Source: Synergistales bacterium
Lineage (GTDB): Bacteria > Synergistota > Synergistia > Synergistales > JAFGMB01
Direction: 5' to 3'
DNA length: 64,000 bases
Assembly: GCA_963666205.1 (NCBI GenBank)
Contig: OY762654.1
Location: 1,408,001 to 1,472,000 of the forward strand
The notes below the pieces were generated by a model. That model searched no databases and had not been told where the DNA came from. It was given only the letters and a program-made list of their open reading frames with translations. Shown in pieces: positions 27,269 to 62,536 of this stretch. The position numbers were made by a program, and so were the translations under genes. Positions within the stretch are counted from its first letter, which is position 1, and every line of letters starts with the position of its first letter.

Positions 27269-28081
27269 ATGGAGAGATTTACAAGAAAACATTATTTTGG
27301 CAGGCTTCTGATACTGAGCCTCCTCATTATGGTCATAGCCATTGCTTCAGCGGCTCCGACCGTTGGAACAGAAACATCAAGGCTGGATACCATCATGGAA
27401 ATGGGTGTCCTCAAGGTAGGTACCACGGGGGACTATAAGCCCTTCACATATTTCGATAAGGAAAAAGGCGAATTCGAGGGTATAGACATTGATATGGCCA
27501 AGTCCCTTGCGGCAGCCCTTGGGGTGAAACTGGAACTGGTTCAGACCACATGGAAAAATATCGTCACAGACCTGGTTGAAGGAAAATACGACGTGGCCAT
27601 GGGAGGAATATCCAAAAGGCTTTCAAGGCAGACCAGCGTTTTCTTCACCATTCCCTATCTCGAAACTGGAAAGGCACCCATAACCCTGAAAGAGAATGCG
27701 GAAAAATTCCAGACCCTCGACCAGATCGACCAGGAAGGCGTCAGGGTAATTGTTAACCCCGGAGGAACCAACGAGAGCTTCGCCAGGGCAAACCTTAAAA
27801 AAGCCACCATAGTGGTTCATGAGGATAACGTAACCATTTTCGACCAGATCATCCAGGGCAAGGCAGATCTTATGATGACAGATGCTGTGGAAACACTGGT
27901 ACAGGAAAAACTGCACCCCGAACTCAAGGCCGTAAACCCGGACAAACCATTCACATTCACCGAATTCGGCTACATGCTTCCCCGGGGAGACTCCGTGTTC
28001 AAGGAATGGGTCGACCTGTGGCTCCATACCGCTCTGAAAACCGGAGAATACCAGAAATATTTTGACAGCCGGGTAAGATAG
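27269..28081 (+). CDS. pheC: Exported cyclohexadienyl dehydratase (PheC-like, SBP family 3 fold)
   Basis: Signal peptide ending ASA; GTTGDYKPF, GKAP, VNPGGTNE, DNVTIF, MMTDAVE, as in Pseudomonas PheC. Confidence 0.78.
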   Translation: MERFTRKHYFGRLLILSLLIMVIAIASAAPTVGTETSRLDTIMEMGVLKVGTTGDYKPFTYFDKEKGEFEGIDIDMAKSLAAALGVKLELVQTTWKNIVTDLVEGKYDVAMGGISKRLSRQTSVFFTIPYLETGKAPITLKENAEKFQTLDQIDQEGVRVIVNPGGTNESFARANLKKATIVVHEDNVTIFDQIIQGKADLMMTDAVETLVQEKLHPELKAVNPDKPFTFTEFGYMLPRGDSVFKEWVDLWLHTALKTGEYQKYFDSRVR

Positions 28082-52266: not shown

Positions 52267-52533
52267 CTAACCAGTCTTCTTCATCTGGACGGAACGGCAC
52301 AGGGCAATGATCTCTGTATAAACGGACGCCAGGGCTTCTCCATCTATATCAGGGGCAAGATCCTGAAGTCTTCTTATAACTGCCATTTCCCTTTCCGGGT
52401 CATAGACAGGCCTGCTGCCCTTGGCTTCTCCTATCTCCCTGGCCACGGCCACCCTTTCCCGGAGCATCTTTATTATTGAATTATCGATGGAATCTATCTT
52501 CAGTCTGAGTTCCTTCAACCTTGTTTCATTCAT
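52267..52533 (-). CDS. Monofunctional chorismate mutase (AroQ class)
   Basis: LRLKIDSIDNSIIKMLRER...K...PVYDPERE; start at ATG 52533. Confidence 0.87.
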   Translation of the reverse strand: MNETRLKELRLKIDSIDNSIIKMLRERVAVAREIGEAKGSRPVYDPEREMAVIRRLQDLAPDIDGEALASVYTEIIALCRSVQMKKTG

Positions 52534-52564
52534 GGAATTGCACTTCCTTCGGTCATAGATCTCT

Positions 52565-53023
52565 TTATTTACAAAGGCCCTGCTGAATAATATTCCGAAG
52601 AGCTTCCAGGGCCAGGATATAGCCATGGCTTCCAAATCCTGCTATTCGGCCCCTTACAACGGGAGCTATGACGCTTTTATGGCGAAATTCCTCCCTGGCC
52701 TCCGGATTGGATATATGAACTTCTATTACAGGAATGGCAAGGGCTGTTATGCAGTCCCTCAAGGCGTAACTATAATGGGTATAGGCTCCTGCATTGAGAA
52801 CAGCTCCCTGGGCCTCCTTTCGATTTTCCTGCAGTATATCGATAAGGACTCCTTCGGAATTGCTCTGGGAACACCTGACCTCGATCCCCTTACTGTCTCC
52901 CCAGTTACGGCACTTCTCTTCCAGGTCTTCCAGGGTTTCATGTCCATAGACAGAGGGTTCACGCTCACCCAGAAGGTTCAGATTGGGACCGTTAACCACA
53001 AGAAAGACCGGTTTTTTCTCCAT
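52565..53023 (-). CDS. aroQ: Type II 3-dehydroquinate dehydratase
   Basis: NGPNLNLLGEREP.VYG, QSNSEG, NAGAYTHYS, EVHISN..AREEFR. Confidence 0.95.
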   Translation of the reverse strand: MEKKPVFLVVNGPNLNLLGEREPSVYGHETLEDLEEKCRNWGDSKGIEVRCSQSNSEGVLIDILQENRKEAQGAVLNAGAYTHYSYALRDCITALAIPVIEVHISNPEAREEFRHKSVIAPVVRGRIAGFGSHGYILALEALRNIIQQGLCK

Positions 53024-54602
53024 AGAGCATCACCTCCCTGTAAGCATTTTCAAGATCCTCAAGTCCTGCATTATCGACAAGAAGGCTGTTCCCTATCCCC
53101 TGGGGAATAACCAGTCGCGGCTGGCGGGAAATGAATTTTTTGTCCCTTTTTATGTAGGGAAGTATCTCTTCCCAGGGAATATCAGATCTGACAGGAAGAC
53201 CAAAGGTCTTCAGCAGACCATGGAGTTCCTCAAATTCGAGGATACTCATATTTCCCCTTCCCACGGAGATGAGTGCTGCCACCATCATTCCCACTGCAAC
53301 AGAATCTCCATGTTTCCAGTTCCTGTAGCCGGAGGCTGCCTCGAGGGCATGTCCGATGGTATGGCCAAGATTAAGTCTTGCCCGCTCTCCCTTCTTTTCC
53401 TTTTCATCTTTTTCTACTATTTCCAGCTTGATCCTGGTACACCACTCCACCATCCGGACCAGAACATCCTTCTGGCGGGAGAGAATGAGTCCGGCATGGA
53501 GAGTGAGCCAGGAAAAGAGATCCCTGTCATGGCCAAGACCGTACTTTGTCACTTCGGCAAGGCCCTGCCGGAATTCAACACCGGAAAGAGAAACAAGGCA
53601 GTCCACATCGGAAAAAACCGCCATGGGCTGATGAAAGGCTCCAACCATATTTTTGCCCCCGGGCAGATTAATTCCCGTTTTACCTCCAAGAGCGCTGTCA
53701 ACCTGGGCAAGGAGGGTGGTGGGACACTGTATGAAATTTATGCCCCTCATCCATGAAGCAGCGGCAAAACCGGCTACATCTCCTACAGTCCCTCCTCCAA
53801 GGGCAAGGATACATCCTGATCGGTCTTCACCGGCCTCCTGGAGCTGATTGAATATATTCTGAAGCTGCGTAAGGGTTTTGGCTTCCTCTCCCCTGGGAAG
53901 CAGGCTCAGTTTTTTCCCCGACAGCACCTTATCAGCATAAAGCGGACCTGTTATCTCATCGGCAACAACAACAGGAAGTCTGTCGGAACCGGAGAGCAGG
54001 TCTTCCATGGAGGCAAGGATACCGCTGCCTATGTATACAGGATAGGAATTTACCCCGGTACGTCCCTGGAGAACTACCCCTTCCGGCTTTTCAGCCAGAG
54101 GCTGAAGATTCAGACCTTCCATGATCCTCTCCACTTCTTCCTCCACTGTCAGCTGGTCTGTCTCTATTATCAGATGACCATTGGAATAGGCAGGTATTCT
54201 CTTTTTCCACAGGGCATTTACATTCAGGGGATCAAGGAGGGGACGCTTTCCCTTCTCCGAGGCTGCTCTTTTCAGAGCCGTTTCCGGAAGTACGGACAAA
54301 ACAACAAGGATCCCCTTCTCCATGATGGTTTCCTTCAGTTCCGGATCGGCAAGGATACCGCCGCCAAGGGCTATGATCATTCCCTGGAGTTCGCAGAGTT
54401 CCCGTACAACATTTTGTTCCATGAGGCGGAAAACTGATTCTCCCGAAGTAGCAAAGATCCGGGCGACGCTCATTCCGGCTCTCTGTTCAATTATCTGATC
54501 CGTATCGACAAAGGGTCTTCCTGTCTTTGCTGCGAGGTCCTTTCCGACGGAAGTCTTTCCTGCCGCCATGAAACCGCCGAGAAAAATATTCTTTCTAGCC
54601 AT
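52992..54602 (-). CDS. aroB: Bifunctional shikimate kinase / 3-dehydroquinate synthase (AroK-AroB)
   Basis: GFMAAGKTSVG and ALGGG (kinase); GGGTVGD, PTTLLAQVD, GGKTGIN, NLGHTIGHALE (synthase). Confidence 0.93.
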   Translation of the reverse strand: MARKNIFLGGFMAAGKTSVGKDLAAKTGRPFVDTDQIIEQRAGMSVARIFATSGESVFRLMEQNVVRELCELQGMIIALGGGILADPELKETIMEKGILVVLSVLPETALKRAASEKGKRPLLDPLNVNALWKKRIPAYSNGHLIIETDQLTVEEEVERIMEGLNLQPLAEKPEGVVLQGRTGVNSYPVYIGSGILASMEDLLSGSDRLPVVVADEITGPLYADKVLSGKKLSLLPRGEEAKTLTQLQNIFNQLQEAGEDRSGCILALGGGTVGDVAGFAAASWMRGINFIQCPTTLLAQVDSALGGKTGINLPGGKNMVGAFHQPMAVFSDVDCLVSLSGVEFRQGLAEVTKYGLGHDRDLFSWLTLHAGLILSRQKDVLVRMVEWCTRIKLEIVEKDEKEKKGERARLNLGHTIGHALEAASGYRNWKHGDSVAVGMMVAALISVGRGNMSILEFEELHGLLKTFGLPVRSDIPWEEILPYIKRDKKFISRQPRLVIPQGIGNSLLVDNAGLEDLENAYREVMLYGEKTGLSCG

Positions 54603-55764
54603 GGATAAAACACCCCACTCTTTTTTCATAGCTTCTCCATCGTTCTCTGAGGTCTTCAAGGGTATCTCCGCCGAACTGTTCCATAACAGCTCCGGCAAGT
54701 ACCCAGGAGAACATGGCCTCTCCTACAATACAAGCGGCGGGAAGGGCACAGACATCGCTTCGTTCGAAGGCCGCTTCTACTTCAAGGCCGCTGTTAATGT
54801 CTATTGATCTGAGGGGTTTCTTAAGGGTCGGAATGGGTTTCATTGCTGCAGAGAGGATCAGTTCCTCTCCATTGGTCATTCCACCCTCAAGGCCTCCAGC
54901 ATTGTTGGTAAGCCTCTGCCAGCCCTTTTCGCAAGGAAGGATCTCATCATGGGCTACGCTGCCCTGTATGCGGGCAAGTTCAAATCCCCTTCCTGTCTCC
55001 ACACCCTTGATGGCGGGTATGGACATTATGGCCCCGGCCAGCCGGCCGTCCAGACGTCGGTCCCATTCGGCATGTGAGCCTATACCGGGAAGCAGTCCCA
55101 TGGCGGACAGAAGAAAGGTCCCTCCAAGGGTGTCACCCTCTTCCCCGCATTTCCTGATCCTTTCCATAAGCCTCTGCTCGTCTTCCCTTCTGGGACATCC
55201 AAGGTCCGAAGCAGCTGCATGATCCCATTCAGACGGACTTTCAGGGGGAGCCACTTCTACTCCTCCTATGGATGTAACGGAGCTTCGGATGGTCACTCCC
55301 AGTTCTTCGAGAAGGAGGCGGGCAATTGTCCCCGCTACGGTCCAGGCTGCTGTAGATCTTGCACTGGCCCTTTCCAGTACATTGCGGATATCATCATGGC
55401 CGTATTTGACAGCACCAGGAAGATCCGCATGTCCGGGTCTGGGTCTGGTAACCCTCTTCAGCGAGGCTTTTCCCTCATCAGTTTTCCATGGATCCAGAAG
55501 GGACTTCCACTTGTCCCATTCAGTATTCTCAAGGGAGAAACTGAGGGGAGAACCGACGGTGAACCCGTTTCGCAGCCCGCTCCAGGCTGTGAGCCTGTCC
55601 CTCTCGAGCTTCATTCTGGGGCCGCGGCCATAGCCTCTGCGGCGCCTGGACAGCTCGCCGGCTATTCTCTCTTCCTTTATTTCCAGATGTGAGGGCAGAC
55701 CCTCAAGAATAAGCATGAGACCTCTGCCATGGGATTCTCCGCTGGAAAGAAAACGAAGGGTCAT
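54595..55764 (-). CDS. aroC: Chorismate synthase
   Basis: GESHG, RPRPGHAD, ERASARST, NNAGGLEGG, KPIPT, RSD. Confidence 0.95.
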   Translation of the reverse strand: MTLRFLSSGESHGRGLMLILEGLPSHLEIKEERIAGELSRRRRGYGRGPRMKLERDRLTAWSGLRNGFTVGSPLSFSLENTEWDKWKSLLDPWKTDEGKASLKRVTRPRPGHADLPGAVKYGHDDIRNVLERASARSTAAWTVAGTIARLLLEELGVTIRSSVTSIGGVEVAPPESPSEWDHAAASDLGCPRREDEQRLMERIRKCGEEGDTLGGTFLLSAMGLLPGIGSHAEWDRRLDGRLAGAIMSIPAIKGVETGRGFELARIQGSVAHDEILPCEKGWQRLTNNAGGLEGGMTNGEELILSAAMKPIPTLKKPLRSIDINSGLEVEAAFERSDVCALPAACIVGEAMFSWVLAGAVMEQFGGDTLEDLRERWRSYEKRVGCFIHG

Positions 55765-55766
55765 TA

Positions 55767-56615
55767 TCAGTCCCTCTCCCTCTGGACAAGGGCATTACGC
55801 ATGACTTCCACTGGAGCCGTTCTTCCTGTGAAAAGCTCAAAAGCTGCAACTCCCTGGAAAAGGAGGACTTCTTCTCCTCCAACTGCAGGAATGCCTCTTT
55901 CTGAAGCAGCAGACACAAGAGGGGTTCTGCCTTCTCTGCTGTAAACCATGTCCAGAACCTTACCTCTGCCTGCAGCAGCAAGGATATCTTCAAGGAAAGG
56001 ACCGGGCCAGATATTGTCTTCAAGACCAAGGGATGTAGCATTTACAAGAATGTCAATTTCCCCTTCCGGGACTGCTCCCCATGGGATGATCTCTATTTCA
56101 GTATTCTCCATCAGGGGAAGGAGGTCTTCCTTAAGGGAACAGGCCCTGGAAAGGGTCCTGTTGGCCAGGATTATGGGAGAAAACCCTTCTTCTCCAAGGG
56201 CACATACAACTCCCCTTGCGGCACCTCCCGCACCTAGCACCATGGCCCTCTTTCCATCGGGTCTGAAGCGGGACAGTACCTCTCTTACTCCAGTAATGTC
56301 CGTATTGTGTCCTATGGTCTTTCCGTCCCTGAAAAGAACCGTGTTTACGGCACCGGCCTTCTCCGCTGATGGCGCGAGCTCATCAACCCATTGAAAGGCC
56401 CCTTCCTTGTGAGGAACTGTTATATTTGTTCCCACCGCTCCAAGGGACGCCATGCCTTCCAGGGCGGAAACAAGTTTTTCCCCCTTTACATCAAAAGCCA
56501 TATAGTGCATATCAAGATCCAGGTGGATCATTGCAGCGTTGTGCATGACAGGGGAAAGGCTATGGTCTACCGGGCTCCCGAGGAGACCTACGAGGCGGTT
56601 GGTATTGGTTCTCAT
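55767..56615 (-). CDS. aroE: Shikimate dehydrogenase
   Basis: HSLSP, NITVPHK, GAVNT, NTD, GAGGAA, NRT. Confidence 0.95.
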   Translation of the reverse strand: MRTNTNRLVGLLGSPVDHSLSPVMHNAAMIHLDLDMHYMAFDVKGEKLVSALEGMASLGAVGTNITVPHKEGAFQWVDELAPSAEKAGAVNTVLFRDGKTIGHNTDITGVREVLSRFRPDGKRAMVLGAGGAARGVVCALGEEGFSPIILANRTLSRACSLKEDLLPLMENTEIEIIPWGAVPEGEIDILVNATSLGLEDNIWPGPFLEDILAAAGRGKVLDMVYSREGRTPLVSAASERGIPAVGGEEVLLFQGVAAFELFTGRTAPVEVMRNALVQRERD

Positions 56616-57901
56616 GCAGCATTCCTCCCCCTGACCTTCTCCATATTTTCAAAGAATCCGGGATCGGATATTGCTACTGAGGAGGTGTCGTCGATAGTGA
56701 TCTCCCCTTCAGAAACAAGGGAGGCTATGGACAGGGTCATTACGATCCTGTGGTCATTGTAACTACGCACCTTTGCTCCATGTAGATGGCAGGGACCCTT
56801 GATGATCCAGCCGTCATCCTGTTCCCGGATATCAGCACCGAGGGCGGAAAGGCCTTCTGCTACAGCATGGATACGGTCACACTCCTTGAATCTCAGTTCC
56901 CTGGCTCCCCTTACTTCTGTAATTCCCTGCGCCTGTGTCGCTGCAAGGGCAAGAATGGGAAGTTCGTCCACCAGGGAGGGGATCTCTTCCGCATCTATGA
57001 CAGTTCCTCTCAGGACAGATGTTCTGACAAAAAGATCAGCTACATTCTCTCCACCCCATTTCCTGAGATTGCGGATCTCGGGGTTAAGACCCATCCTCTC
57101 CAGAACCCTGAGGGCGCCAGTCCTGGTGGGGTTCATTCCTGTATCCTCTATTTTCAGGCCTCTTTCAGAACAGAGGACTCCTGCAACTATCCAGAATGAG
57201 GCTGCAGAGAAATCTCCGGGGACAGTCCAGCTTCCTCCGGGTATCTCATTGCAGGGGTAGACCGTAACTGAAAGGCCTTCTCTCTGGAGTGGCACTTCGA
57301 GGAAATCCAGCATTATCTCGGTATGATCCCGGGTAAGCCTTTTTTCATTGACAGTAGTACTGCCGGAAGCGGAAAGCCCTGCAAGAAGGAGGGCCGTCTT
57401 CACCTGGGCGCTGGCAACGGAAGGAGAATGTTCACCACCTGAAAGCCGGGCCCCTCTTATGGCAAGGGGAAGCCTTTCTCCACCTTCGCATCCGTCGATC
57501 CGGGCCCCCATAGCCTGAAGGGGACGGACTACTCTCGCCATGGGGCGCATTCGCAGGCTTTCATCTCCTGAAATCACGGCAAAGAAACCGGGTATTCCGG
57601 CAAGGAGTCCCGTCATCAGACGGGCTGTAGTCCCTGAATTTCCTGCATCCAGTACTCCCTGGGGATCAAGAACTCCCTCTCCGCTGCTTATGTTCACCAT
57701 GCCGTCCTTCCTGACAACGCGACAGCCAAGCCGGGAGAGGCATTTCAATGTGCTGGCACAGTCTGCTCCTGGAGAAAAATTATCAACTGTGACCCCTTCC
57801 CGGGAAAGAGCACCTAGGAAGGCTGCCCTGTGTGAAATGGATTTGTCCCCCGGAAGGGTTATGGTTCCTGCTATTTTCCCCATTCTCTCAATGGTCTTCA
57901 T
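56612..57901 (-). CDS. aroA: EPSP synthase (class II-like)
   Basis: PGDKSISHR, GNSGTT, ASAQVK, RDHTE, NPTR, KECDR, DHR. Confidence 0.95.
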   Translation of the reverse strand: MKTIERMGKIAGTITLPGDKSISHRAAFLGALSREGVTVDNFSPGADCASTLKCLSRLGCRVVRKDGMVNISSGEGVLDPQGVLDAGNSGTTARLMTGLLAGIPGFFAVISGDESLRMRPMARVVRPLQAMGARIDGCEGGERLPLAIRGARLSGGEHSPSVASAQVKTALLLAGLSASGSTTVNEKRLTRDHTEIMLDFLEVPLQREGLSVTVYPCNEIPGGSWTVPGDFSAASFWIVAGVLCSERGLKIEDTGMNPTRTGALRVLERMGLNPEIRNLRKWGGENVADLFVRTSVLRGTVIDAEEIPSLVDELPILALAATQAQGITEVRGARELRFKECDRIHAVAEGLSALGADIREQDDGWIIKGPCHLHGAKVRSYNDHRIVMTLSIASLVSEGEITIDDTSSVAISDPGFFENMEKVRGRNAA

Positions 57902-57920
57902 GGCCTCTCCCTGTCCTTTC

Positions 57921-58985
57921 CTAGATCACTGGAATGGCGCCGCAGATCTTTTCTCTCTCCTCCTGAACAGGAAGAGCGGGTATAAGACGGGCTATCATAT
58001 CCATGAGCTGCGAGAATTCACTGCAGGACAGAGACTGGTCTCCATCGCACAAAGCTTCTTCAGACCTTGGGTGGACTTCTATGATCAGTCCATCGGCACC
58101 AGCGGCCAGAGAAGCCATGCTCATGGGTGTGACCAGGCTGCGAATACCCGTTCCGTGGCTTGGATCAACTATCACCGGCAAGTGGGACAGGGATTTTACA
58201 AGGGGTACTATATTGAGATCGAGAGTATTCCTTGTCCTGGTCTCAAAGCTCCTGATACCCCGCTCGCAGAGGATAACATTGAAATTGCCTCCACAGAGAA
58301 TGTATTCCGCCGCCTGAAGCCATTCATCTACTGTTGACATGGCTCCCCTTTTAAGGAGTACGGGTTTGTCTACTTTTCCCAGGGCCTTCAGAAGGGGGAA
58401 GTTCTGCATATTACGGGCTCCCACCTGGAAAATATCTATATGAGGTTCCAGCCATTCTATGGCTTCAATGGACATGACTTCCGTCACTATGGGAAGACCG
58501 GTTTCCTCTTTGGCTTCACGGAGAAGGGCGATCCCTTCGCTTCCAAGACCCTGAAAGGAGTAGGGATTTGAACGGGGTTTGAAGGCTCCGCCACGAAGAA
58601 CTGATGCTCCAGCCTTTTTAACGGCCAGGGCGGCATCTCTGATCTGTCGTCTGTTCTCAACCGCACAGGGTCCGGCCATGATGATCCTGTTACCTCCGCC
58701 TATGGTCACACCCGGTGCTATCTTTACGATACTGCTCTTTCCCCCGGTAAGTTCCCTGCTGGCGAGAGGAAAGGGACTATCTGTGGTTATTACTTCCATC
58801 ACGCCCGGGAGTCCCTGCAGTGCCAGTTCCCTTTTCATTGTTCCTTCGACCATTACCAGGCATCCGTCGTAATAGGGGATAAAGCGAGCTTTGCAGCCTT
58901 CTTTTTCAACTTTCTGAAACACATTAGCCACATTGACGTTGGATGTACTGTTCTGCATTCTGATGATCGTTCGCTTATTTCCCAT
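57921..58985 (-). CDS. aroF: DAHP synthase, type I-beta, with N-terminal regulatory domain
   Basis: AGPCAVE, GGAFKPRS, GARNMQN, LKRG, CERG, DPSH, EVH, LCDG; GGAGGT SD. Confidence 0.93.
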   Translation of the reverse strand: MGNKRTIIRMQNSTSNVNVANVFQKVEKEGCKARFIPYYDGCLVMVEGTMKRELALQGLPGVMEVITTDSPFPLASRELTGGKSSIVKIAPGVTIGGGNRIIMAGPCAVENRRQIRDAALAVKKAGASVLRGGAFKPRSNPYSFQGLGSEGIALLREAKEETGLPIVTEVMSIEAIEWLEPHIDIFQVGARNMQNFPLLKALGKVDKPVLLKRGAMSTVDEWLQAAEYILCGGNFNVILCERGIRSFETRTRNTLDLNIVPLVKSLSHLPVIVDPSHGTGIRSLVTPMSMASLAAGADGLIIEVHPRSEEALCDGDQSLSCSEFSQLMDMIARLIPALPVQEEREKICGAIPVI

Positions 58986-59034
58986 TTTTACTTACCTCCC
59001 TGATATCTGTTTAATAAATTTTAATAAAGGATAT

Positions 59035-59072
59035 AAAAAAAGCCGGAACCCGGTGAAAACCGGGTTCCGGCT
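59035..59072 (-). terminator. Attenuator terminator upstream of aroF
   Basis: mRNA AGCCGGAACCCGGU-UUUC-ACCGGGUUCCGGCU followed by a U run; lies between the promoter and aroF. Confidence 0.88.
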
Positions 59073-59103
59073 TAATAATGTCTGATTTTCAGCTTATTGC
59101 TTT

Positions 59104-59259
59104 TTACAGCTGTATGCCAGGTTCATCAAGACAGGCCGATAACCGATTTTCACGTACTGAAAGACCACTGGCATAGGAATAAAGCCACTGGCCGCTGGTA
59201 AAGTAGAAATAATAGTATGCGAAAGAGCTATCGATGGTCTTACCAGGTACGTGCATCAT
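59104..59259 (-). CDS. Aromatic-rich attenuation leader peptide (51 aa)
   Basis: MMHVPGKTIDSSFAYYYFYFTSGQWLYSYASGLSVRENRLSACLDEPGIQL; GAGGAG SD; lies between promoter and terminator. Confidence 0.82.
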   Translation of the reverse strand: MMHVPGKTIDSSFAYYYFYFTSGQWLYSYASGLSVRENRLSACLDEPGIQL

Positions 59260-59321
59260 TATCGAACGTGTCTCCTCTCTTCAAAAAGATTTTGTCTGAC
59301 TTTTCAAATATATTGTCGGCC

Positions 59322-59350
59322 ATGATAAAGCCCTCAGAGCCTTTTGTCAA
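59322..59350 (-). promoter_or_regulatory. Sigma70 promoter of the aro operon
   Basis: TTGACA-17 nt-TATCAT. Confidence 0.8.
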
Positions 59351-59369
59351 GGCTATTATGTAAAAAAGT

Positions 59370-60179
59370 CTAAAAGGTCCTGTCGGTCCATCTGGAAAGG
59401 GCTTTTTTTATTCCGCCCCGGGCACTGTGTTCTATGAGCCATCTGTCAATTACTTTCTTGAAACCATATTCCCCCGGGCCCAGCATGAAGGCAAATCTGG
59501 CGCAGGTAAAGGGCCGGTGGGGATTAATGGCCTTGAGAAGGGGACATCGTTTTTCCCAGACCATGGCCTCAATGGCATCGGTTATCATAATATCGGCCTC
59601 TCCCCTGATTATCATGTCAAAAACGGTCATATTGTCCTTGTGGACTGTAATTGTTGCTCTACTGAGCTTTTTCCTGGCAAAGGCTTCATTGGTCCCTCCC
59701 GGATTGACGATCACTCTCACCCCTGGACGGTCTATGTCTTCCAGGCTGTCAAAGAGGCGGGCCCTCTCTCTGGATGAGATGGGAGCTTTTCCTGTCCTGA
59801 AATAGGTGGCACTGAAAAGGGCTTTCTTTCTACGCTCCTTCGAAATGGCAATGCCTCCCACTGCAATATGAAATTTCTCTGACAGAAGATCATCCATGAG
59901 ATCTCTCCAGGAGGTGGGGATGAACTGAATGCCCACTCCGAGGAAACGGGCAAAGTTCTCTGCCGTATCTATATCTATACCCTCGAGACACTCCCCGTTA
60001 TCGTAACTGAAGGGAAGATAATCTGCAGGAGTGCCCACCCGGAGAATCTGACAATCCCTGATCTCCTCAAGAACGGATATTTTCTCGCGGTTTTCCCGAA
60101 TCTTTACCATCTCTCCATATTTCCAGTGAATAGATGGATAGAAAGGTTCGCTTTTACCTCCTGGTTTTGTCTGGATCAT
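59370..60179 (-). CDS. pheC: Cyclohexadienyl dehydratase (PheC-like) without signal peptide
   Basis: DYLPFSY, GKAP, VNPGGTNE, ITDAIE; hydrophilic N-terminus; GGAGG SD. Confidence 0.75.
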   Translation of the reverse strand: MIQTKPGGKSEPFYPSIHWKYGEMVKIRENREKISVLEEIRDCQILRVGTPADYLPFSYDNGECLEGIDIDTAENFARFLGVGIQFIPTSWRDLMDDLLSEKFHIAVGGIAISKERRKKALFSATYFRTGKAPISSRERARLFDSLEDIDRPGVRVIVNPGGTNEAFARKKLSRATITVHKDNMTVFDMIIRGEADIMITDAIEAMVWEKRCPLLKAINPHRPFTCARFAFMLGPGEYGFKKVIDRWLIEHSARGGIKKALSRWTDRTF

Positions 60180-60208
60180 TCTTATTCCTCCCTCTCTCTA
60201 ACAGCCTT

Positions 60209-60245
60209 AAAATAAAAAAGCCGGGACCCTGAAAAGGGTCCCGGC
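60209..60245 (-). terminator. Attenuator terminator upstream of pheC
   Basis: mRNA GCCGGGACCCU-UUUC-AGGGUCCCGGC followed by UUUUUUAUUUU. Confidence 0.88.
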
Positions 60246-60261
60246 CTGAAAAAGCTTCTGG

Positions 60262-60354
60262 TCAAATAGCATCCAGAGCTCCAGGAGGGGACCCGCAGCT
60301 AAAAAAGAAGCTAAAAAAGGAAGATACATTATTAAATATGTTATGGAGCTTCAC
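60262..60354 (-). CDS. Phe-rich attenuation leader peptide (30 aa)
   Basis: GTG start behind AGGAGGTG; MKLHNIFNNVSSFFSFFFSCGSPPGALDAI. Confidence 0.82.
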   Translation of the reverse strand: MKLHNIFNNVSSFFSFFFSCGSPPGALDAI

Positions 60355-60389
60355 GGGTTTCACCTCCTGATGGAATCTGATTTCAGACG

Positions 60390-61256
60390 CTATTTCACTG
60401 CTATGTCCCTGAGAATAGCCTCACGGGAGATCCTGCCCTCTTCAGCCATCACTTCAAACTTTTCGGGAGAAGAGTTTTTGAAATTCTGCAGTATTTCTAT
60501 CAATCTGTCAAGGAGAACTTCCATATTTTCATGATTTGTAGCCCACATATCAGCTGCAAGCCAGGCCGGACCTGAAGCCACCCTGGATGTATCCCTGAAA
60601 CCCCCTCCTACCATTCTGGGCAGGTTGGGAAAACTTTTTTTCTGTTCATCCGCCAGTAATGCAAGGGATGAAGCAAGTATGGTGGGGATATGGCTCACAC
60701 AGGCAAGGATCCTGTCATGTTCGACGGGATCCAGATAGACCGCATTTGAACCTATGGAGGACACTATTTCCGCAGCCAGTTCCATTGCCCGGGGATCGGT
60801 CAGACCATGGGGAACAATAGCACAGTCAGCCTTCCTGAACAGGTCGGGAGATGCATTTTCGATCCCGCTGTACTCCTTTCCTGCCATTGGATGGAGTCCT
60901 ACATAGGCCCCTCCCCAGATCCTTGACAGGGTTTCCCCTATCTCTTTTTTAGTACTCCCCACATCCATAACGGCAGCGGGGGTCTGGGCAAAAAAAGGTT
61001 TCAACATGAGACTTACCTCCTCCATGTTACGGAGGGGGACTGCCAGGATCAGTAAATCAATGGCGTCTGCAAATTCCGCAGCAGTGTAACAGGGCTCGAA
61101 CACAAAACCCATATCAAGGGCAGTTCTCAGAGCTTCGGGGTTCCGGTTCCATCCAAAAACCTGCTTTGCCGCTCCCGATCCTCCAAGGGACGCCGCAAGG
61201 GAACCTCCTATAAGACCAAGTCCTGCTATTCCAACGTTAAGATCTGATAATGTCAT
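60390..61256 (-). CDS. tyrA: Prephenate dehydrogenase
   Basis: GLGLIGGS, DVGSTK, HPMAGKE.SG, EHD...A.VSHIP, GFRDTSRVA. Confidence 0.93.
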   Translation of the reverse strand: MTLSDLNVGIAGLGLIGGSLAASLGGSGAAKQVFGWNRNPEALRTALDMGFVFEPCYTAAEFADAIDLLILAVPLRNMEEVSLMLKPFFAQTPAAVMDVGSTKKEIGETLSRIWGGAYVGLHPMAGKEYSGIENASPDLFRKADCAIVPHGLTDPRAMELAAEIVSSIGSNAVYLDPVEHDRILACVSHIPTILASSLALLADEQKKSFPNLPRMVGGGFRDTSRVASGPAWLAADMWATNHENMEVLLDRLIEILQNFKNSSPEKFEVMAEEGRISREAILRDIAVK

Positions 61257-61292
61257 ATTTTTCTCATCTTCTTTTCAGGGTAATTGTCGGGA

Positions 61293-61321
61293 ATCATAAA
61301 CTTGAGGGTCTATTGTGTCAA
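61293..61321 (-). promoter_or_regulatory. Sigma70 promoter of tyrA
   Basis: TTGACA-17 nt-TATGAT, about 36 nt before the ATG. Confidence 0.78.
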
Positions 61322-61478
61322 GGCAAACTGGAGCGAGCCTGGAAAAACCTTATGAACTCCGGACAAAACCCTATTCTCTCGCGGAGAGAAGGGAAGGGAA
61401 ATGGGAAACACGGAAGAAATCGAAATGGCTGTCTACTTGGAACTTATTGCGAAAATGGCATTAACCCCAAGTCAACCT

Positions 61479-61521
61479 GAAGATACAGGCCGGACATTAA
61501 TTCTGTCCGGCCTGTATCTTC
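61479..61521. terminator. Hairpin with an 18-bp stem after the dehydrogenase gene
   Basis: GAAGATACAGGCCGGACA...TGTCCGGCCTGTATCTTC. Confidence 0.6.
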
Positions 61522-61552
61522 CTGTTTTTTCAGCTAACTGTCCGGTGCTGGA

Positions 61553-62536
61553 CTATTTTTTCAGAACTTCTGGATTCAGAAGATCTGGCGGCGTCTTTCC
61601 TTCCAGCCCCGCAAGGAGGTTAGTCACTGCCTTGATGGCCATATCCTCTCTGGTCTTTGTACTTGCGCTTCCAAGGTGGGGCGTCATGGCGATGTTATCA
61701 AGCAGCAGAAGGGGGTCTTCGGCATCCATGGGCTCCTTCTCGAAAACATCCAGGCCGGCTCCGGCGATCCACTCCTCCTTCAAGGCTCTGGCAAGGGCTT
61801 TCTGATCAACGACAGGACCCCTGCTGGTATTGATGAGAATGGCTGTTTTCTTCATCATCTTCAGTTCCTTTTCTCCTATGAGACTCCTGGTCTCCGGAGA
61901 GAGGGGACAGTGAATAGATATAAAATCACAGGTTCCCAGGAGATCCTCAAAGGAAAGGAATGATATTCCCAGTTCTTTTTCCAGTTCCGGTCTCCTGTTC
62001 CTTCCTGTATAGCAAAGCTTCATATCAAAACCCTTTGCCCTCTTTGCCATTGCCTGGCCTATCCGGCCAAGGCCTATTATTCCAAGGGAGGATCCTGCCA
62101 CCTGCTGGCCCAGGAGCATTCTGGGACCCCAGTACCTCCAGCCTCCGGATCGCATGAGCCGTTCTCCTTCGCTCATCCTTCTGGCAGCCATAAGAAGAAG
62201 GCCAAAGGCCAGGTCTGCGGTCGCATCTGTGAGCACTCCAGGTGTATTGGTAACAAGGATGCCCTTCTCTGTGGCATAAGCCACATCTATATGATCGTAA
62301 CCCACGCTGTAACTGCTTATGATCCTCAGATTCCTGCCTGCATCAATTGCTTCCCGATCCATTTTTGTTGTCGCTCCAGGAATGGCTACCACTCCATCGG
62401 CAATGGAGATCTGTTCAAGAAAATACTCCCTTACAGGCGGCTCAATGTCTCTCCATATCTCAAAATTAGCCTTTGTCAGAAGCATATCGAGGCCTATATC
62501 GGGGATATTAGTCGCAATAAATACTCTTGGTAACAT
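61553..62536 (-). CDS. gyaR: D-2-hydroxyacid dehydrogenase (glyoxylate reductase / D-glycerate dehydrogenase)
   Basis: VGYDHID, NTPGVL, GLGRIG, INTSRG, LDVFEKEP, TPHLGSA. Confidence 0.88.
   Translation of the reverse strand: MLPRVFIATNIPDIGLDMLLTKANFEIWRDIEPPVREYFLEQISIADGVVAIPGATTKMDREAIDAGRNLRIISSYSVGYDHIDVAYATEKGILVTNTPGVLTDATADLAFGLLLMAARRMSEGERLMRSGGWRYWGPRMLLGQQVAGSSLGIIGLGRIGQAMAKRAKGFDMKLCYTGRNRRPELEKELGISFLSFEDLLGTCDFISIHCPLSPETRSLIGEKELKMMKKTAILINTSRGPVVDQKALARALKEEWIAGAGLDVFEKEPMDAEDPLLLLDNIAMTPHLGSASTKTREDMAIKAVTNLLAGLEGKTPPDLLNPEVLKK

Follow-up and report, generated by a model that had tools for sequence, protein, structure and literature searches.

In the thr and ilvGMEDA leaders several amino acids are sensed through mixed codons in one leader peptide, and in the Lactococcus leu/phe leader motif of Rfam one attenuator scaffold occurs with different regulatory codons. 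The attenuator of Escherichia coli pheL-pheA is the Rfam family Phe_leader, and the aroR leader of Corynebacterium glutamicum was reportedly the subject of work by Neshat et al. in 2014. Here we describe two elements from an anaerobic Synergistales bacterium (phylum Synergistota), found in a stretch of 64,000 nucleotides (contig OY762654.1, positions 1,408,001 to 1,472,000; hereafter the window) that is part of a complete genome of 2.95 Mb. [quoted passage not shown] We consider it very likely that both are ribosome-mediated (leader-peptide) transcription attenuators.

The pheL leader of E. coli pheA is described in two earlier papers (PMC11802643, PMC3082878). The Phe leader shares with it an open reading frame (ORF) with Phe codons, mutually exclusive antiterminator and terminator hairpins, and a dehydratase of the phenylalanine branch downstream. 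It differs in that this dehydratase is of the PheC type, with a solute-binding-protein fold, rather than a chorismate mutase–prephenate dehydratase, and in that no Rfam leader family matches it; moreover, region 1 of its RNA is the Shine–Dalgarno (SD) site and start codon of the leader instead of the codon run, and the element lies behind tyrA rather than directly behind a promoter. The aroR leader of C. glutamicum lies upstream of the DAHP synthase gene aroF, according to one of these papers, a review (PMC11802643). It resembles the aro leader in its aromatic-codon peptide and in the attenuation of an operon headed by DAHP synthase. However, aroR holds Phe-Tyr-Phe only, whereas the leader found here has 6–13 aromatic codons including Trp, a conserved hairpin and an unrelated sequence, belongs to a different phylum, and would control the whole shikimate pathway together with chorismate mutase. 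E. coli trpL, also described in that source (PMC11802643), is comparable in its three alternative hairpins, and the multivalent leaders are comparable in their mixed codons; in contrast to both, the anti-antiterminator here sequesters the ribosome-binding site of the leader. A mixture of Tyr, Phe and Trp codons in one leader had no description in the full-text literature searched. Compared with the Lactococcus leu/phe motif, the scaffold of the Phe leader carries Phe, Ile, Val or Tyr-rich runs in at least eight copies in one genome and has no Rfam match. T-box riboswitches likewise let tRNA charging choose between terminator and antiterminator, whereas sensing here would go through the translation of an ORF, and the window holds no T-box.

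A 2010 survey gave Proteobacteria and Actinobacteria as the only groups in which leader-peptide systems had been known until then, and added Firmicutes (PMC2965389). No such leader in Synergistota was found in the full-text literature, in which subscription journals are poorly covered. The mechanism is classical, and a leader that controls DAHP synthase has been described before; the new details, which are of moderate interest, are two RNA families, their conservation across the phylum, a region 1 that sequesters the ribosome-binding site, and a scaffold with swapped codons. They extend classical leader-peptide attenuation to a little-studied phylum, provide at least two candidates for curation as RNA families, namely the aro leader and the SCGSPPG-type scaffold, both absent from Rfam 15, and offer a compact natural example of an attenuator scaffold re-targeted by codon exchange.

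Anatomy and conservation of the two leaders

The two transcription units are adjacent on the minus strand (Table 1). The original prediction, made from the sequence alone, had read them as a promoter followed by tyrA without a leader, a Phe attenuator ahead of pheC, and a second promoter with a Tyr/Phe/Trp attenuator ahead of seven aro genes. Each of these parts was recovered in its place and orientation; tyrA has no leader, its ATG following the predicted −10 box after only about 30 nt, and covariation in relatives supports both attenuators. The architecture that it had assigned to the two terminators in common, AAAAAAGCCGG...GAAAA...CCGGC on the plus strand, is also correct. Both elements contain an ORF with an SD site and start codon, a cluster of cognate codons, a terminator before the first gene, and an antiterminator that takes up one strand of the terminator and is in competition with a third pairing.

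The aro leader ORF is preceded by GAGGAG, 12 nt ahead of its ATG, and 10 of its 51 codons are aromatic (6–13 across 27 relatives). All homologue, leader and covariance-model searches covered Synergistota. DAHP synthase relatives occur in 115 of 268 genomes, and 29 of the best 30 loci have, upstream of DAHP synthase, a small ORF that carries the motif (Y/F)xYYF-[ST]-[GD]-GQW-x-YYASG...RGNP; at the thirtieth, there are only 184 nt to the contig end. The fold of the aro leader is more stable than that of shuffled sequences (z −4.31). From 27 aligned aro leaders RNAalifold recovered the terminator and a hairpin, P1, with compensatory changes at 11 of 23 pairs, among them 3 of the 10 pairs of P1. 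Region 2 of the aro leader is a conserved block encoding RGNP(L)SA, and its sequence is complementary to region 3, which consists of the terminator's 5′ arm and loop. This pairing was read from the sequences first and then tested on the 27-sequence alignment, using as controls the partner slid by 1–3 columns. The results show 89.4% of alignment cells paired versus 21–55% when slid, with 7 of 16 pairs changed on both sides and a covariation score of 0.217 versus 0.157 in shuffles, a score that 0 of 500 shuffles matched.

Because the start regions are out of register in the alignment, the pairing of region 2 with region 1 was assessed per sequence by duplex folding against shuffles. The best upstream partner of region 2 spans the SD site and start codon of the leader in 24–25 of the 27 sequences (from printed coordinates, by eye), with energies of −19 to −34 kcal/mol that resemble those of the antiterminator. 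All 27 ORFs run through region 2 and stop 16–55 nt beyond it and 26–55 nt before region 3; in the leader of the window, these distances are 28 and 34 nt. A covariance model of the leader core has matches in 41 of 151 sampled Synergistota genomes, representing 10 of 13 families, and the matches lie just upstream of DAHP synthase at every locus where coordinates were compared. Second, weaker matches in one family belong to a paralogous leader ahead of aroA-aroC-aroK (loci L089–L093; genomes G036, G033, G069, G041 and G062), which is separate from the DAHP synthase leader of the same family and carries FxFxFxF followed by YYYY in a different hairpin, with no Trp codon.

The Phe leader ORF starts with GTG, 8 nt after AGGAGG, and five of its seven Phe codons fall within the six-codon stretch FFSFFF. 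Its fold is likewise more stable than shuffles (z −2.74), and the duplex of regions 1 and 2 reaches −26.4 kcal/mol, compared with −13.2 ± 3.0 for shuffles. The stop codon lies 17 nt past region 2 and about 13 nt ahead of region 3. A Phe-run leader with a terminator precedes a pheC homologue at 8 of 30 loci, comprising all five genomes of the same family and three of a second family; judged by eye, none was found at the other 22 pheC-homologue loci (≤47% identity). One of these leaders, at L013, was missed by the scripted leader scan, though its sequence resembles that at L012. In two genera tyrA lies directly upstream of the leader, and elsewhere the leader has its own promoter. As a separate observation, two tiny Phe-rich ORFs of 4 and 8 codons precede PheC homologues of 47% identity at L007 and L008, with no obvious terminator by eye; these may be a different, translational form of Phe sensing.

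Comparison with Rfam at the gathering score gave no match in the whole window. With E-values up to 10, the region 58800–61700 gave 13 chance-level matches to terminator-containing RNAs, none of them a T-box or an amino-acid biosynthesis leader family; the sole leader match was the ribosomal protein L20_leader, at 18.8 bits versus a gathering score of 58.7. The original prediction had recognised no T-box, and the scan of both intergenic regions bears this out with no RF00230 match. The genome has six matches to this family, three of them over the cut-off, all outside the window.

Only four metatranscriptome runs contain small shares of the stretch, all as assembled contigs, and gaps in this coverage carry no meaning. 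The aro leader is covered by three contigs, which come from two studies (59080–59234, 59092–59277 and 59016–59264), and a further one, 60158–60572, extends from the 3′ end of tyrA across the Phe leader and its terminator into the first bases of pheC. The latter is compatible, weakly, with co-transcription of tyrA and pheC and with read-through of the terminator.

Proposed mechanism and competing explanations

From the anatomy, the conservation and the covariation of terminator and antiterminator, we infer the positions and timing of the ribosome, the response to each amino acid and the co-transcription of tyrA and pheC in the following model. RNA polymerase would start at a sigma-70-type promoter, which for the Phe element is most likely that of tyrA, so that the polymerase would read through tyrA, and a ribosome would translate the short leader ORF behind it. 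Region 2, just past the regulatory codons, could pair either with region 1, the SD site and start of the leader itself, or with region 3, the terminator's 5′ arm. If Phe-tRNA (Phe leader) or Tyr-, Phe- or Trp-tRNA (aro leader) is scarce, the ribosome would stall at the codon cluster that separates region 1 from region 2, and so hold the two apart; region 2 would then pair with region 3, no terminator would form, and pheC or the seven aro genes would be transcribed. When charged tRNA is plentiful, the ribosome would pass region 2 and reach the stop codon between regions 2 and 3, after which region 2, covered by the ribosome or re-captured by region 1, would leave the terminator to form and transcription would end. 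The short spacing of the stop codon in the Phe leader suggests that a terminating ribosome would physically separate regions 2 and 3, whereas the longer spacing in the aro leader suggests that its off state leans more on the re-pairing of regions 1 and 2. As read from the sequence, this arrangement departs from the classical attenuator with three pairings in that region 1 appears to be the leader's own ribosome-binding site and not the codon run.

The net logic would be that the common pathway is derepressed when aromatic amino acids run short (chiefly Tyr and Phe, judging by codon count), that a shortage of Phe alone derepresses pheC, and that tyrA is made whenever its promoter fires, all of which is plausible. 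Two-tier control of this type had been put forward in the original prediction, and gene order makes it plausible, but the circuit is larger than was claimed there, with two leaders containing three consecutive Trp codons and a Tyr-rich leader elsewhere in the genome. The further idea of tyrosine synthesis as the default, with a gate for Phe only, agrees with gene order (an unattenuated, promoter-proximal tyrA and pheC behind the Phe leader) and is weakened by a candidate promoter inside tyrA. The claim of a circuit made of RNA only is not supported: three TrpR-family genes lie elsewhere in the genome, and the DAHP synthase is of the type and length of the allosteric Thermotoga enzyme.

Several observations weigh against attenuation by these leaders. 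The aro leader has a long spacing, 12 nt, from its SD site to the first ATG, and its ORF holds a single Trp codon. Its stop lies far enough past region 2 (28 nt) that a terminating ribosome would leave region 2 uncovered, so that re-pairing with region 1 would have to be supposed. Codon content need not predict the response, as aroR responded to Phe and not to Tyr in the account given by the review PMC11802643. The related sequences are kin, and shuffle statistics overstate their independence. The RNA-library data are assembled contigs whose ends, strand and level cannot be read and which could derive from DNA. The TrpR-family (Trp_repressor) genes mentioned above would allow protein control at the promoter level. 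In addition, the consensus scan is by itself no evidence for promoters or terminators, since its totals did not exceed those of shuffles (6 versus 7.5 promoters, 12 versus 12.5 terminators), even though the two attenuator terminators, which are long and G+C-rich, with 13 pairs (60247..60218) and 15 pairs (59073..59040), stand out on the minus strand from a runner-up of 5 pairs. It is because of their conservation and covariation in relatives that the leaders are not put down to chance.

The alternative that survives best concerns the coupling of the two genes. If pheC were transcribed mainly from its own promoter inside tyrA (60511..60483), tyrA and pheC would be separate units and the Tyr-default logic would fail, while the Phe attenuator would stand. 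We regard this as unlikely but as deserving real weight: the site matches the consensus at 10 of 12 positions, and at four loci of more distant relatives (L006, L010, L012 and L013) a separate promoter precedes the Phe leader and tyrA does not. However, the internal promoter is not recognisable by eye in the sister genus (L004 and L005), where tyrA also precedes the leader; the gap between tyrA and the Phe leader is only 45 nt and contains no terminator; and, as weak support for a joint transcript, the RNA-library contig that starts at 60572, upstream of the internal site, runs through the leader into pheC.

Control of both promoters by protein repressors, either a TrpR-family protein or an unrecognised regulator, with the leaders minor or additive, is distinctly improbable. 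Besides the three Trp_repressor-family genes, small inverted repeats are visible by eye over both −35 boxes, and Synergistetes are reported to use the TrpR-family protein HisR for his genes (PMC9413887). That same precedent tells against the idea, in that one of the three genes adjoins a class I/II aminotransferase gene, as that source describes for hisR-hisC, and a HisR-like motif with up to two mismatches has six matches in the window, none of them at either promoter. As the original prediction had observed, there is no TyrR- or TrpR-type gene in the block, and the only adjacent regulator gene is a convergent one of LacI type. The conservation of the leaders with covariation argues that they are used. 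A candidate for an aromatic-specific operator, CCGACAAT...TGAAAAG (CxxCAAT...TGAAAA), lies downstream of both −10 boxes; it was rejected as generic, since the same pattern occurs at the promoters of the Ile, Val, Ile/Leu/Val and Tyr-rich leaders.

P1 of the aro leader, together with the peptide GGQW-x-YYASG, might instead be a nascent-peptide arrest signal or a factor-binding site that senses free aromatic amino acids. The positions CAGUGGC of P1, including the mismatched G, are invariant in 27 of 27 sequences, and neither pairing nor coding demands that G. Its G·G mismatch (alignment columns 35 and 58) is kept in 26 of 27 sequences and replaced by a G–C pair in L060, a leader in which the Ser codon of ASG has switched from AGU to UCU with the peptide ASG retained. 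Against this stand the paralogous aroA leader, whose hairpin sequence is different and which has no Trp codon, and compensatory changes in P1 (C-G to U-A, in four sequences) that fit a constraint at the RNA level. Furthermore, the UGG codon required within the stem fixes much of the P1 sequence, and the sequences are kin. We give arrest or factor binding even less credence than repressor control. That the small ORFs arose incidentally and the hairpins merely terminate transcription constitutively or insulate one gene from the next, as the chance-level totals of the consensus scan might allow, is scarcely credible, since conservation of the ORFs, the codon clusters and the alternative pairings extends to as many as ten families, codon identity matches the pathway at the Trp, Ile/Val, Phe and aro loci, and an essential pathway would be shut off by a constitutive terminator before the only operon for DAHP synthase.

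A scaffold with exchanged codons

For the ribosome-mediated attenuation that we favour, the remainder of the genome provides further cases. A genome-wide scan with a script of our own, which looked for small ORFs that have a ribosome-binding site, contain a codon run and are followed by a terminator, gave 99 candidates. These were mostly noise and included a coherent set of Trp, Ile, Val, mixed Ile/Leu/Val and Tyr-rich leaders. The WWW leaders precede the two parts of a split trp pathway, trpC-trpB-trpA and trpE-trpG-trpD. Tandem Ile leaders lie before ilvC-ilvB, a Val leader lies before panB and a class IV aminotransferase gene (panB-ilvE), and further Ile/Val leaders lie before a leuC-like gene and a class I/II aminotransferase gene. 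Codon identity thus fits the downstream pathway at the Trp, Ile/Val, Phe and aro loci.

One scaffold is common to the Phe, Ile, Val and Tyr-rich leaders, with at least eight copies in one genome. The codon run is followed by AGCUGCGGGUCCCYUCCUGG, which encodes the peptide SCGSPPG and forms the anti-SD region 2, and then by the terminator GGCCGGGA...UCCCGGCC. In an alignment of 17 such leaders (Phe, Ile, Val and Tyr; paralogues and orthologues), 98.6% of cells are paired in the terminator and 87.6% in the antiterminator, the latter compared with 25–63% when slid and with compensatory changes at 4 of 11 pairs. Region 2 pairs with the SD site and start of the leader in all 17 (−17 to −26 kcal/mol, compared with −11 to −16 for shuffles), and also with region 3 in all 17 (−20 to −29 kcal/mol). 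Because the RNA of region 2 makes both of these pairings, the conserved SCGSPPG tail would most simply be a by-product of the anti-SD and antiterminator segment.

The Tyr-rich leader has this scaffold with its own promoter and terminator and is kept in all five genomes of the family. Behind it come a conserved ORF of 55 aa and then one or two tiny ORFs ending in LPCLC, LPCLR or LPWLC; no Pfam match was found for these small ORFs, and in two relatives a sodium:solute symporter gene follows them.

A wider reading, tentative and in our view somewhat doubtful, is that Synergistota run most of their amino-acid biosynthesis on leader attenuators. These would serve the whole of the aromatic network, from the common pathway and the Phe branch to two Trp operons and the Tyr-rich leader. 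A few reusable scaffolds would then acquire their specificity by swapping the codon run, the ribosome-binding site would couple leader translation to termination by acting as anti-antiterminator, and P1 may add a second sensing step through nascent-peptide arrest or factor binding.

Enzymes and neighbouring features

The protein encoded at 59370–60179 matches solved cyclohexadienyl dehydratases (CDTs) and AncCDT-5 with E-values of 4e-66 to 1.7e-59, the binding ancestor AncCDT-1 with 3e-39, and amino-acid-binding proteins with 1e-20 or weaker. Judged by these sequence matches, it is a PheC-type CDT, nearer to the catalytic CDTs than to the binding proteins. The prephenate dehydratase domain has no match in the genome, and the same search was positive in 14 of 14 reference genomes used as a control; the PheC-type enzyme behind the Phe leader is therefore the only dehydratase candidate for Phe synthesis. 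Since it lacks a signal peptide, it is a candidate dehydratase of the cytoplasmic pathway. The Phe leader would thereby supply an independent, functional line of evidence that in this lineage the place of the canonical prephenate dehydratase is taken by a cytoplasmic enzyme of the PheC type. Elsewhere in the window, a second PheC-like paralogue (27269–28081, plus strand) shares 49% identity with the leader-controlled one, has a hydrophobic, signal-peptide-like N-terminus and has no leader.

In the aro unit, seven ORFs begin with DAHP synthase, and those after it are tightly packed or overlapping. The agreement of the DAHP synthase in type and length with the allosterically regulated Thermotoga enzyme suggests by analogy that it probably carries an allosteric domain. 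The unit includes a shikimate kinase/dehydroquinate synthase fusion (aroK-aroB), a type II dehydroquinase (aroQ) and a chorismate mutase of the CM_2 family, which ends at 52267. For tyrA, the NCBIfam matches stay under the equivalog cut-offs.

Table 1. Coordinates of the leaders, promoters and genes (window positions unless prefixed by G000 or L)
Feature	Position	Strand	Basis or remark
aro leader ORF, 51 codons + stop, 6 Tyr, 3 Phe, 1 Trp	59104..59259	−	first cluster 59223-59200
aro leader region 1, SD-to-start segment, complementary to region 2	59246..59274	−	E −24.6 kcal/mol, z −3.1
Hairpin P1, GGCCAGUGGC...GCCAGUGGUC; Trp codon in 5′ strand, Tyr codons in loop, conserved G·G mismatch	59163..59193	−	RNAalifold
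aro leader region 2, GUGAAAAUCGGUUAUCGGCC, antiterminator 5′ strand	59134..59153	−	alignment pairing test
aro attenuator terminator, stem 59073-59040, U run; region 3 = 5′ arm + loop, 59072-59053	59035..59073	−	folding, RNAalifold, scan
Phe leader ORF, 30 codons + stop, 7 Phe codons	60262..60354	−	Phe run 60318-60301
Phe leader region 1, SD site + GTG start, complementary to region 2	60346..60373	−	duplex energy
Phe leader region 2, GCGGGUCCCCUCCUGG, anti-SD + antiterminator 5′ strand	60281..60296	−	duplex folding, alignment
Phe attenuator terminator, stem 60247-60218, U run; 5′ arm = region 3	60209..60249	−	folding, covariation, scan
tyrA promoter, TTGACA-17-TATGAT	61293..61321	−	11/12 consensus matches, sigma-70-like
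aro operon promoter, TTGACA-17-TATCAT	59322..59350	−	11/12 consensus matches, sigma-70-like
Candidate internal promoter, tyrA 3′ end, TTGACA-17-CAGAAT	60483..60511	−	10/12 consensus matches
tyrA, prephenate/arogenate dehydrogenase	60390..61256	−	Pfam PDH_N/PDH_C; ~30 nt 5′ UTR (untranslated region)
PheC-type cyclohexadienyl (prephenate/arogenate) dehydratase, without signal peptide	59370..60179	−	Pfam SBP_bac_3; solved-CDT matches
DAHP synthase, type I-beta, N-terminal extension	57921..58985	−	Pfam, NCBIfam
aroA (EPSP synthase), aroE (shikimate dehydrogenase), aroC (chorismate synthase), aroK-aroB fusion, aroQ, chorismate mutase	52267..57901	−	Pfam, NCBIfam
Ile, Val and mixed Ile/Leu/Val leaders (loci L062-L067)	G000:C1 1188195(+), 2316625(+), 2316865(+), 1596463(−), 1090639(−), 992573(−)		codon-run scan
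Two Trp leaders, three consecutive Trp codons, ..RNWWWQ.. (loci L068, L069)	G000:C1 1969274(+), 1874888(−)		codon-run scan
Tyr-rich leader, 28 codons, 5 Tyr, 2 Phe, 1 Trp	L065:5073-5243; G000:C1 ~1479570-1479745	−	7.6 kb past window end

Two minor features lie at the upstream end of the block. A mini-ORF of four codons (ATG AGA AAA ATA TGA, 61256–61270, minus strand) overlaps the start codon of tyrA as ATGA, possibly reflecting translational coupling or coincidence. Between a 2-hydroxyacid dehydrogenase gene and the tyrA promoter, there is an 18-pair hairpin (61479–61521) with a T run on the plus strand only, so that nothing clearly stops transcription of the upstream minus-strand gene from running on into tyrA.

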